From: a virus
Lineage: Duplodnaviria; Heunggongvirae; Uroviricota; Caudoviricetes
Strand: one strand, 5' to 3'
Length of the DNA: 12,547 nt
IMG/VR virus record: IMGVR_UViG_2681813268_000016
Location: 1-12,547 of that record
Shown piece by piece: positions 3,001-6,000 of this stretch (positions are counted from its first letter, which is position 1; each line of letters starts with the position of its first letter). Position numbers: made by a program.

Positions 3001-6000
3001 TTGCGCATTGATGCCGAGATACGCTTCCAGTCTTCGCGGTCGTTGTCGATAACTTCATTTTTTGCCCAGCGATGGATGCTGCCGTCAATGTTTCCGGCAT
3101 CCACATCACCAGGCCAGAGAGCGTAGGCCAGTTCGTCATCCAGTGTTTTCCATGTCTGCTTGTATTCGCGATGAGTGGCAGCAATGACCGGGCTGATTTT
3201 TCCTGTTGAATTTTCAGTGTTCTGTTGATTGGCTCTGGCGCGGGCGAGATCAACAACAGACGTGTATTTTCCAGTCTCTTTGCGCTCTGCGTCCTGCCGT
3301 TTTTTCCAGTTACGTAATTCAGCCTGAATTTCGGGCCATTTGGCACCCGGATTACATTTGTGTTTAACCCATCCGATAGCGAACAGTTTGCGTTCCGGAT
3401 ACATAGCGTTAATTTCAGGCGTTTTCATCAGTGCTTCAACGATATGCCCGTCAAAGGTAGCAACGTCTTCCTGCAGTAATTCCTGCGCGTCAATCGCCAT
3501 ATCAACGGTGATGTTTTCACATGTACCGAACTTAACCAGGACCGCGTTCTGTACTTCAAGGGACAGCTTGTCAAAATTGACGTTCATCGGATCGGATTCT
3601 GGTTCGACCGGAATAAAGGAAGCGGATTCCTCATCCCAGCGGTTTTCCTGCATATATTCAGCATCCCAGGAATCGAGGGCAGGGCGGGGTATACCGGGTT
3701 TATCCTCGCAGACAAGAAATTTATAAGCGCAGTCCTGAGCAGCCGGATAATGTTCCAGGAATTGCCAGTGAAATTTTGCGCGGGCGCGACGTTCATCACC
3801 GGCTTCAATGGCAGTGGCTACAGCGACGGCACCTTCTTCCTTTATTGCCTGTTCGTCCGGAATGGCGGCGCAAATAAAGACTTTACTCATTTTGTTTTAA
3901 CCTCATTACAGATTTCAGGGTGAACGAATCCCTGCCATTGCTGGCATTTTTAATCCGTTGGTATGGCGTTAATATGGCTGGCGGGTTATCCAGCCGGTAT
4001 TTCGTTATTCAGGTTCAGCGATACTTTTTTTAACGGGAGGCATTCACCGGGGATTTTTTGTTCGTCCCTTACCTGAATGCAGGATGACTTACTGTCATAA
4101 ATTCCGGTAATCACATTTTGTGGCTCACCCGTTATAAGAAAAACGGTCATCACCAGTGCAAATGCTGAAGTCACTGCTGTTCTCCGATAATACCAAGTTC
4201 AAGAAGGGCAATTCTGGAAAGTATGGAATTATCATTGAGAAGATAAGGTTCATATTTTCTCATCTTAATGGCATCTTCCGTAAACTCCCGGTTACTGAGC
4301 AGAACACCAATATCAAAACAACCTTCAGACGTATTAACGTTTGGTAATAACGTTTCCATTATCGCGTCCTCAACAATGAATTTTGTGATGCAGTGCCTGG
4401 TGCCTCCAGGTGACGTTAACCAGTTAACAATTAACGCCGGATACAGAGAGTCCACCCATAACACTGTTTTTGGTTTTAACTGTTCCGCGTGCGCTGAGCC
4501 GCATTCACCGCATCACAAAATTCACTTTAAAAACGGCGGCAGAGCAGTCACGGAGTAAAACTGATACCGCCAAACGTCACCAGAAAATTGATAACAGAGG
4601 GCGTTGCAGCGGGGTTGTCACTTAAGCGTATGGTCAACCTGACAACTCGGTGTCCTCAACGGGGAAGGAATAACCCCGCCATACTTACCGCCGCGCCATT
4701 TCGCGGGTTGCCACAACCGGAAGCGCACGGTCGACGAAAATTTAACGACAGGCTATCTATGAACCAGCTACCTCGCCGTGCGCTTTCGCGTTATGGTCTG
4801 ACTTTTCAGGGAAATATCCTTTCAGTAAACTGTCAGTGCCGGATGCTCACCCGTGTCCGGCGCACGCACTCCACCTCACCCGTGGAGAATTCCTTAATTA
4901 CCAACCTTAGCTTCGTTGGTTAGCTATTAACGCGGGTATGTAATCATTCTGGCAATGCTTAATGCCGCTGCTTTTTCCAGATTGGTGATATCCTGCTCCA
5001 GAGCGGACAGATTTTCAGCCTGCTTAGCCCTGGCTTCATTAGCCCATTTCAGATCCTGCGCTGCATTAATTTTCTGGCGCATCCACTCATAAAGTTCATC
5101 ATCGGTATAGTCTGGCGCGATTATGACGGGTTCTCGTTTCTGCATACTGATTCCTCGCGGTGCTACTTCGCTTATCAGCCGTTAGATTTTGCCGAGCTGG
5201 AAAGCGCCTGTTTAAACTCACTGAAGCTGAGAGCTTCTTCGCCTTCGGCAAGGTCTTCGAAGTATTCTTCGTAAGCCTTTTCCATGATTGTGTCGAAATC
5301 CATATCACTCACCTGAGTTTCTTTCCAGCCAGCGACGGGCACCATTTTCGGTTTTAAACGTTTTGCTTTTGGTATACGTCATCGCGGTGAACGTACCGTC
5401 CTGGTTGGGGAACACGCCACATACCAGAGATTCGCTGTTGCCAAGATCGATAGTATCCATGCTGACCTCATTTCCCCTTAACGCTGGGGTAGCGGAACTA
5501 AAAACCTGCTGCGCTGTTATACAAAGTGTTCCCGCCGTCATGTTCATACGCCTCGGGCTGGCTACTTACCCCCTGACCACTGCTTGGTAACTCGAAGTAT
5601 TGCCCGGCGTTCTGTGGGGCGGGGTGGGTTGGTATGTTGTTAAGGTAACAAGAGTTACCTTTCGAGTCAATACAATGTTGCAAAAGGTACGTTTGAGGGC
5701 ATAAAAAACCCGCAATGAATGCGGGTTCTGACTCAGTCTAAGTATTGATGTATTTGTGAAACTTTACCTTTAATGGTGTAACCACCATTCAGTTCGATGG
5801 GTTTGTAAAGCGGATTCAGTGACAACAGATAGATGTTTGGTCCGTCAATCGCAACTTTTTTTAGTGTTACGTTTGGCGTTCCTTCCAATTGGATTAAGAT
5901 TATTTTTCCCACCAGTTCTCTAATGTTACTTGAGCATGGTGTGATCAGCACGGTAGATCCGTCGGGGATGGTTGGGAGGCCGTTAGAGTTTGTCATCGCA

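Follow-up and report, generated by a model that had tools for sequence, protein, structure and literature searches.

A predicted pseudoknotted RNA domain ahead of DicF and other terminators in repressor-controlled phage operons

DicF is among the oldest known bacterial small RNAs (sRNAs). Decades of work have gone into the dicBF operon of Escherichia coli K-12, whose RNA on either side of DicF has been treated only as a 'long untranslated region'. Sequence conservation around dicF was reportedly noticed long ago, by Faubladier and Bouché in 1994 (cited in PMC5069750). The DicF 5' end is made by RNase E and the 3' end either by Rho-independent termination, giving a 53-nt species, or by RNase III, giving one of 72 nt, and both terminated and full-length dicBF transcripts have been published (PMC5069750, PMC9438474). 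We describe here the untranslated RNA that precedes DicF in a 12 547-nt stretch of viral DNA (IMG/VR record IMGVR_UViG_2681813268_000016, positions 1 to 12 547; hereafter the window), a Qin/Tritos-like lambdoid prophage with its early-left operon on the minus strand, and in particular a segment of about 125 nt, termed type C, that ends just before DicF.

The put RNA of phage HK022 binds the zinc-binding domain of the RNA polymerase beta' subunit and suppresses pausing and termination without protein factors. Strong sequence conservation, which put and type C have in common, would fit binding to a host component (PMC9378689). STnc100 is a prophage sRNA related to PasD, and STnc100 and PasD are described near Q and the late genes, not in PL leaders (bioRxiv 10.64898/2026.05.13.724894). 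Neither type C (4596-4723) nor the rest of 4587-4926 has an Rfam match at E<=10, the STnc100 and DicF (RF00039) models included, and literature searches on dicF and antitermination, on dicF-like elements, on RNase III sites and on mEp021 turned up nothing about this region. In a literature search whose coverage stopped short of the 1994 paper and the P1 genome paper, no description was found of the folded domain, its pseudoknot, its coupling to terminators, its relation to N or the presence of two domains flanking DicF.

Structure and distribution of type C

The DicF-proximal third of the leader is almost certainly a real structured RNA, judged by the pattern of substitutions among its relatives. 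The structure was drawn by eye from a first alignment and then counted on 79-83 distinct sequences; its elements are listed below, together with the spacer that separates it from DicF.

About 4723 to 4596, minus strand: type C domain, predicted pseudoknotted RNA of about 125 nt (alignments A1-A3, pair counts, covariance model R1)
4717-4711 with 4609-4603, minus strand: helix P0, GUUGUGG with CUGCAAC
4706-4702 with 4695-4691, minus strand: helix H1, CCGCG with CGCGG
4690-4687 with 4651-4648, minus strand: helix P2, CGGU with ACCG
4678-4674 with 4664-4660, minus strand: helix H2, CGGGG with CCCCG
4647-4640 with 4620-4613, minus strand: helix H3, AGUUGUCA with UGACAACC
4684-4679 with 4633-4628, minus strand: pseudoknot, GUAUGG with CCAUAC, the latter within the H3 loop
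4586 to 4602, minus strand: AU-rich single-stranded spacer between type C and DicF, holding the published RNase E cut position for the DicF 5' end

The predicted fold is a closed multi-helix junction in which P0 encloses H1, the P2/H2 arm and H3, and the pseudoknot joins the P2/H2 junction to the H3 loop. Across the alignment 95.5 % of the cells are paired, and 13 of the 35 pairs have two-sided changes. Shuffling gave 5.2±1.6 such pairs (0/500) and slid controls gave 0-5; a MAFFT-based count was also made. The best-supported helices are H2, which is built from several unrelated stem sequences, and H3, which in Izhakiella differs at four pairs. P2 and the pseudoknot have one covarying position each, that of the pseudoknot passing through U-A, U·G and C-G inside the P1/P7 clade, and H1 has no covariation at any pair. 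Compensatory changes are spread over independent lineages (Izhakiella, Erwinia, Serratia, Trabulsiella, Citrobacter, Salmonella and P1/P7), and the core, with its near-invariant H3 loop, is invariant whereas its flanks are hypervariable. Single-sequence minimum free energy (MFE) folding of 4598-4720 yields P0, H1, P2, H2 and H3; for the P1 copy it favours an alternative fold. Model R1 scores 155.8 bits in the window, true copies scoring at least 89 bits and chance pattern matches no more than 20 bits.

Two other pairing schemes were rejected. RNAalifold on the model-based alignment gave a weak nested alternative (-12.7 kcal/mol, three covarying pairs) that cannot hold the pseudoknot and H3 together, and pairing of the H2 loop with the junction (UCCUU with GAGGA) was ruled out, the junction sequence not being conserved. 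We note that GUUGAGGAC occurs twice on the minus strand, at 4652-4660 (the junction after H2) and at 4366-4374 (the dicB Shine-Dalgarno region), and that both copies are complementary to the pyrimidine-rich loop of H2, which reads UUCCUU in the window and contains UCCU in most relatives.

When complete E. coli genomes were searched with blastn, type C was found in 4416 of 5426 (~81 %), with a median of two copies and a maximum of eight; most of these copies are >95 % identical, and no annotated feature lies over the domain in any E. coli record listed. Annotators sometimes call open reading frames (ORFs) over it on either strand. The stretch 4717 to 4595 recurs without the remaining leader in phages cdtI, 2H10 and Ayreon, Stx2c phages, Salmonella phage F1055 and an Actinobacillus-labelled phage, and also in P1, P7, SJ46, RCS47 and hundreds of P1-like plasmids. 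A conserved-loop pattern retrieved more than 120 viral contigs, and true copies were found in E. albertii, E. ruysiae, Shigella, Citrobacter, Trabulsiella, Serratia symbiotica, Erwinia tracheiphila and Izhakiella; of the matches in the genome-wide pattern scan about 20 were true and about 30 due to chance, such scans saturating on E. coli copies. By blastn each phage record has a single type C place (79 places for 79 records). No second copy was found in the rightward operon, R1 matching once in the 12.5-kb window, about 6 kb of which belong to that operon. The phage deposited as Actinobacillus phage vB_Apl-pPE4 has an early region with DicA, YdaT, Kil, exonuclease VIII, type C, a tandem terminator and a domain of the C' type described below; it resembles an E. 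coli Rac-type lambdoid phage, and its host assignment may be questionable.

Type C is always sense-oriented in operons controlled by a phage repressor. In P1 and P7 it begins about 25-35 nt past the annotated Pban -10 and is the first thing transcribed from the ban promoter; in cdtI, 2H10 and the Stx2c phages it lies about 280 nt past a TTGACA-16-CATAAT promoter adjoining cI (after the cI terminator in cdtI), and in other phages it is downstream of DicA-type repressors.

Terminators, N and a second domain beyond DicF

The coupling of type C to an intrinsic terminator on its downstream side is strict: each of the 89 distinct sequences that follow it contains a GC-rich hairpin and a U-tract about 10-110 nt away. 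Most of these terminators are variants of the DicF terminator stem (GGCGGUAYC...), although that of P1 is unrelated in sequence (GCCCAUC-UUCG-GGUGGGC-U6), and the Actinobacillus-labelled phage has two tandem copies of its terminator. In P1 a self-contained unit of about 185 nt consists of the Pban promoter, type C and the terminator. In the window the intrinsic terminator after type C is the DicF 3' hairpin and U-tract (terminator scan ΔG -18, U5 at 4533), which is the only strong intrinsic terminator from PL to the window end, and dicB lies beyond it. Type C is contiguous with DicF yet outside the RF00039 model, which matches only the 52-53-nt terminator-proximal sRNA at 4534-4585, and differs from it further in being joined also to non-DicF terminators (in cdtI, F1055 and P1); the 'dicF-like region' annotated in P1 (AF234172, 68791-68892) covers the 3' half of the P1 type C copy and its terminator.

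Several other features were seen around these terminators. In five loci downstream of type C (L008, L153, L180, L183 and L185) and in ST64B (L228, 3020-3075) the terminator hairpin holds AGGAG, 6-8 nt, AUG or GUG, and UUC-U(A/G)C-CG, which in sequence looks like a buried ribosome-binding site and start codon. A post-terminator hairpin with a 15-bp perfect stem, ACAAAACAGAGAAGA/UCUUCUCUGUUUUGU, that encloses a multi-hairpin interior is found directly ahead of a yfdP-like gene in cdtI (L004, 2677-2757), SfV (L230, ~2206-2293) and ST64B (L228, ~3088-3175). C4 antisense RNA (RF01695) and isrK (RF01394) adjoin antirepressor-type genes in cdtI (L004, 40-228) and ST64B (L228, 268-456), on the opposite strand to the leader. 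A boxA-like reading of CGCUCUUUUUACAA in cdtI was dropped, this sequence not being conserved in relatives.

The interior of type C is missing where the antitermination gene N is present. Two annotated N-carrying phages share the hairpin upstream of type C (B2, described below), the P0 strands, the spacer and a DicF-like terminator, and a 7-nt loop replaces the ~105-nt interior. In tblastn searches with three N proteins, an N homologue was found within 4 kb upstream of 0 of 109 type C loci compared with 22 of 25 core-less loci, the latter having been collected with one exact 21-nt junction pattern. PHROG scans of the early-left ORFs of the window, cdtI, F1055, SfV, mEp460_4F5, phiES15 and Kati gave no N-like family, and two N controls matched phrog_271. 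Since the N-carrying phages retain the P0 strands, spacer and terminator while the interior is absent, the comparison identifies type C as an autonomous RNA domain.

A second domain of similar architecture, termed C', fills the spacer between DicF and dicB. Its predicted elements are as follows.

4377 to 4524, minus strand: type C' domain, STnc100-like (model R2, Rfam STnc100, folds of six representatives, counts on alignment A8)
4524-4506 with 4395-4377, minus strand: C' closing helix, 19 bp
Within C', minus strand: invariant helices H1' and H4' (CCUGGAGGCACCAGG)
Within C', minus strand: H3' loop UUAACU, paired with an upstream AGUUAA (pseudoknot)

Model R2, built without the window sequence, matches at 4383-4518 with 71.1 bits (E = 8e-17). 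On the A8 alignment 96.6 % of the cells are paired, two-sided changes occur in 12 of 30 pairs, and the covariation score is 0.291 vs 0.107±0.010; by eye, the pseudoknot between the P2' arm and the H3' loop is kept by four sequence pairs (AAGGUUG/CAACCUU, AAGGCUG/CAGCCUU, UGGUUAU/AUAACCA and AGUUAA/UUAACU). The Rfam STnc100 model (RF02076) scores 33.0 bits (E = 1.3e-5) on the window C' at 4382-4522 and 33-41 bits on its relatives, all below the gathering score of 47. The 3' strand of C' adjoins the dicB Shine-Dalgarno sequence UUGAGGAC (4373-4366).

C' is also found in SfV, SfII, SfIV, Kati, mEp460_4F5, Cronobacter phiES15 and at a second P1 site just upstream of tciA, and ST64B has the P0 strands, spacer and terminator of F1055 but a different interior, which is of type C'. 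The P1 ban region thus holds both types, C right after Pban (L003, 1984-2114) and C' before tciA (3336-3467), and predicted opposite-strand Pupl promoters of P1 would transcribe the antisense of the second copy. Strict exclusion of N from the whole C/C' group was abandoned, C' being present also in N-carrying phages. C and C' have the same topology, and leaders that are otherwise identical hold one or the other in the same frame (cdtI compared with SfV and mEp460_4F5); because R1 and R2 give no cross-matches between them, we call them architecturally analogous and not homologous.

DicF is therefore flanked, as far as comparative sequence analysis can tell, by two folded, covarying and pseudoknotted domains. 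The 3' end of the 72-nt DicF (53 + 19 nt; PMC5069750) would map to about 4514-4515, in the middle of the C' closing helix, and because this position falls inside a helix the RNase III dependence of that end would be explained.

The remainder of the leader and the surrounding locus

The genes of the locus and the other elements of the leader are listed below.

6506 to 5733, minus strand: cI-type repressor gene, with its own terminator at about 5708
4927 to 5145, minus strand: ydfC, 72 aa (ORF list; K-12 RefSeq annotation; phrog_1744, E = 1.6e-39)
4586-4926, minus strand: leader gap of 341 nt between ydfC and DicF
4789 to 4926, minus strand: proximal leader sub-modules A/B1 (inverted repeats, MFE fold; mosaic)
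4900-4921, 4869-4887, 4838-4861 and about 4800-4836, minus strand: local hairpins of A/B1
4718 to 4788, minus strand: B2, a long imperfect hairpin (repeat I2, 13 nt at 92 %; 50 variants compared)
4534 to 4585, minus strand: DicF sRNA (Rfam RF00039, 72.5 bits against a gathering score of 48)
4171 to 4359, minus strand: dicB, 62 aa (ORF and translation; K-12 annotation; phrog_1251, E = 2e-40)
4900-4905/4915-4920: repeat ACCAAC/GTTGGT
4691-4695/4702-4706: repeat CCGCG/CGCGG
4614-4620/4640-4646: repeat GTTGTCA/TGACAAC
4609-4623/4665-4679: 15-nt repeat, 80 %

Small genes of the dicBF operon lie on the minus strand between the repressor gene and the leader gap, ydfC being the last coding gene ahead of the untranslated region and dicB the first beyond it, followed by ydfD and an exonuclease VIII gene. 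In the RNA of the early-left (PL-type, dicBF) operon, the 341-nt gap is the 5' portion of a mosaic, untranslated stretch of about 570 nt. E. coli K-12 MG1655 is 98.3 % identical across 4520-5160 and has an equal 341-nt gap with no annotation inside. Just past the repressor-gene terminator there is a perfect palindrome, AAGGTAAC..GTTACCTT (5642-5661, within a site at 5642-5670, minus strand), which overlaps a possible TTGACT-17-TACCTT promoter; the site, at which our consensus scan made no call, is probably the PL operator and promoter of the window phage.

A preliminary description of this DNA, made from the sequence alone, had depicted the gap as an ORF-free, GC-rich, structured leader, and the first part of this holds. 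The only sizeable ORF is a plus-strand one of 111 codons with a TTG start (4588 to 4923), which is not conserved. Homologous copies of the distal part are 131-138 nt long, 133 and 134 both being common, and differ by lengths that are not multiples of three; no plus-strand (antisense) frame is open in 33 of 83 copies, and on the RNA-sense strand 75 of 83 have stops in all frames. No reading frame is thus conserved among the 83 copies, contrary to what would be expected of a protein-coding gene, and the stretch between ydfC and DicF is by these comparisons a real non-coding RNA. Its GC content is only mildly raised, at 0.51-0.55 compared with 0.38-0.49 for the genes on either side.

Four of the five inverted repeats listed in that description are where they were said to be. 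The fifth, CCGGA/TCCGG, was found at 4838-4843/4856-4861 and not at 4831-4852, and the long-range pairing GGGGTT/AACCCC is not conserved, relatives (P1, Serratia and others) keeping instead the local hairpin CGGGG 4678-4674/CCCCG 4664-4660. Folding energy is ordinary (z = -1.59 for 4520-4926, -0.31 for 4598-4720 and -1.41 for 4718-4926), and with z of only -0.3 to -1.6 global stability was dropped as evidence of structure. Since stability is ordinary, the evidence for structure is comparative and does not come from repeats or folding energy, and it is firm only for about 4596-4723. Compensatory changes, for which a comparative alignment had been suggested as a check, were found in the distal third and not convincingly in the proximal two thirds; the guess that a second structured RNA element might be present proved apt, a discrete, covarying, pseudoknotted domain filling the third next to DicF, while the view of all 340 nt as one structured unit is not supported, the leader being mosaic. 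Nor was the proposed internal promoter found: a consensus-based scan for sigma-70-like sites (-35 and -10 hexamers 16-18 nt apart) returned none in 4300-5700, where 1.3 were expected, and none in 1-7200. That the leader may contain processing determinants, as had also been proposed, is plausible.

Match starts in E. coli genomes and phages place recombination breakpoints near 4906, 4884, 4866, 4837, 4806 and 4717, and phages of the PPompW/Evi type have a two-ORF insertion of about 620 bp near the ydfC end of the leader. The A/B1 hairpins show no convincing covariation, there being too little diversity among the variants, and one common variant weakens the ACCAAC/GTTGGT stem without compensation. 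The proximal two thirds of the leader would then be mosaic filler, its hairpins being of unproven significance.

In the B2 hairpin the basal arms, GAAAGCGCACGG (4787-4776) and CCGUGCGCUUCC (4730-4719), which form 12 bp, are invariant in about 50 variants whereas the apical 25-35 nt are hypervariable. This hairpin is found in N-less and N-carrying relatives alike, and is a possible double-strand-specific processing site. The hairpin at its tip (GUCG/CGAC in the window, GUCCG-UUCAAUU-CGGAC in F1055, Erwinia and Izhakiella, AAUCG/CGAUU in P1) seems to travel together with the type C domain. Natural deletion variants in viral contigs and Shigella and E. coli chromosomes (L021, L068, L160 and L161) have the B2 sequence AACGCGAAA fused to the H1 sequence CCGCGAAA, so that both the B2 hairpin and the P0 5' strand are lost. 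In three loci (L008, L183 and L185) hairpins resembling a tRNA T arm lie about 60-130 nt upstream of type C, for example GGCAGG-UUCAAUU-CCUGCC followed by ACC. A tRNA-like reading of the T-loop-like hairpins in F1055, Erwinia and Izhakiella was rejected, ARAGORN finding no tRNA or tmRNA there; it made no such call in seven related type C loci, which include the 94 %-identical HannyBb locus and not the window itself.

Possible roles and relation to known systems

We propose that type C would fold co-transcriptionally just before RNA polymerase gets to the DicF hairpin terminator and would act in cis on the outcome there. In phages without N, some of the polymerases would pass the terminator and go on to transcribe dicB, ydfD and the recombination genes. 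Terminated transcripts would be precursors of about 190 nt with type C as their 5' part, and RNase E would then free DicF from them by cutting the AU-rich spacer. Type C may thus be a leader domain that acts in cis to control read-through and processing at DicF-type terminators, like put in its action but not homologous to it, a reading to which we assign a probability of roughly 0.35. Read-through is suggested by the covarying fold, the coupling to terminators, the early repressor-controlled position, the anticorrelation with N and the location of dicB beyond the terminator, and a put-like activity on RNA polymerase is inferred by analogy. In P1, bac mutants are said to express ban constitutively from Pban without lytic functions, which, if so, fits factor-independent read-through of the terminator after type C. 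A bolder proposal is that C, and possibly C', make up a second class of factor-independent RNA antiterminators with a structure unrelated to that of put. Their target would be the RNA polymerase of E. coli, or Rho, and they would work in the early operons of P1/P7 and of lambdoid prophages without N, DicF-type sRNAs being by-products of the terminators under their control. This seems to us rather unlikely.

A number of observations weigh against a role in read-through. Termination at DicF occurs and yields the 53-nt species, so that any antitermination would be partial, and with only one strong terminator downstream in the window processivity is unsupported. There is a single type C copy per phage record, unlike putL and putR, which follow PL and PR respectively. 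No conserved alternative pairing with the terminator was seen by inspection, which did not amount to a formal search for alternative pairings. The core-less N-carrying set may represent a single lineage, as it was gathered with one 21-nt pattern and only three N types were used, and C' co-occurs with N in 17-28 of 36 loci. C' in the window and at the second P1 site directly precedes a start codon, with no terminator. Finally, the relation of C' to STnc100, a known prophage sRNA family, favours a role as part of an sRNA (bioRxiv 10.64898/2026.05.13.724894).

This last possibility is the principal competitor, and we consider it conceivable if somewhat doubtful: type C would be the body of an sRNA precursor or a 'punctuation' element, without effect on RNA polymerase, serving stability, Hfq/ProQ loading or precise processing. 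In its punctuation version C and C' would confine RNase E to the spacer and RNase III to the C' closing helix, with clean excision of DicF. It accommodates well the two domains on either side of DicF, the RNase E site within the AU-rich spacer, the placing of the 72-nt DicF 3' end within the C' closing helix, the matches of C' to STnc100 (E = 1e-5 to 7e-4) and the compact promoter-domain-terminator unit of P1. However, the core-less N-carrying phages retain a DicF-like terminator, so that the core is not required for such an sRNA; moreover, the anticorrelation with N and the near-invariance of the H3 loop in phages with different terminator sRNAs are left unexplained, and the C' copies that lack a terminator, in the window and at the second P1 site, count against this reading too.

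The remaining explanations are less likely. Invariant junction and loop nucleotides, covarying stems, a pseudoknot and a terminator directly downstream in 89 of 89 contexts are the classical anatomy of a transcriptional riboswitch, and type C could be a sensor of a metabolite, an ion or a host macromolecule that sets termination according to host physiology; but the distance from aptamer to terminator ranges from about 11 to 110 nt, the terminators are unrelated (DicF-type and P1-type), no conserved anti-terminator pairing was found by inspection, no Rfam riboswitch family matches, and the clean absence in N-carrying phages better fits a constitutive role, all of which makes a sensor improbable. 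We attach equally little weight to a trans-acting or decoy RNA that would bind a host factor (a nuclease, a defence protein, RNA polymerase or Hfq/ProQ) after its release, the leader position serving only early expression. The extreme conservation of the loop across lambdoid and P1-type phages, which share mainly their host, the presence of up to eight copies per E. coli genome and the proximity of the P1 copy to phage tRNA genes would suit such an RNA, whereas strict terminator coupling and sense orientation in repressor-controlled operons are not predicted by it, no partner has been identified, and ARAGORN made no tRNA- or tmRNA-like call on related loci. It is very improbable that type C has no dedicated function and is a hitch-hiking mosaic with incidental helices that owes its conservation to recent horizontal spread, or else a protein-coding remnant. 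The >95 % identity of most E. coli copies, the ordinary folding energies, the visibly mosaic leader and the ORFs sometimes annotated over the domain point that way, but compensatory changes at 13 of 35 pairs, seen in several genera and in lineages that are independent, and an invariant core between hypervariable flanks argue against hitch-hiking, and indels that are not multiples of three and break the frames argue against coding.

Among described systems, put is like type C a structured RNA that forms on the nascent transcript of early operons under repressor control, in a lambdoid phage without N; it lies upstream of terminators, at a variable distance, and need not overlap them. It differs in size and form, having about 70 nt and two stem-loops as compared with about 125 nt, five helices and a pseudoknot, and in occurring in both operons; homology was rejected, the best match of R1, with filters off, to the HK022 nun-cI-cro region scoring 9.9 bits and not lying at the PL leader. 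The N/nut system of lambda occupies the same genomic place, at the start of the PL operon before the first terminator, and the type C interior is missing exactly where N is present; type C loci, however, have no N homologue and no recognized boxA or boxB motifs, and nut is a short protein-binding hairpin whereas type C is a large folded RNA. STnc100 and PasD, also encoded in lambdoid prophages, have like type C a closed multi-helix domain on the 5' side of an intrinsic terminator, but only the neighbouring C' scores against STnc100, below threshold. The likeness to transcriptional riboswitches lies in the order of conserved domain and terminator.

The two domains offer mutable targets for asking how N-less lambdoid phages pass their early terminators and how DicF and its relatives are made, and they bear also on the gating of toxic genes such as dicB and kil. 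If type C does modify transcription, put would no longer be an isolated curiosity; otherwise type C is still a widespread new family of structured RNA, whose near-invariant loop implies a specific partner. We would place type C among the leader domains acting in cis, or the sRNA-precursor domains, that phage operons encode, its nearest named relatives being STnc100 and put.

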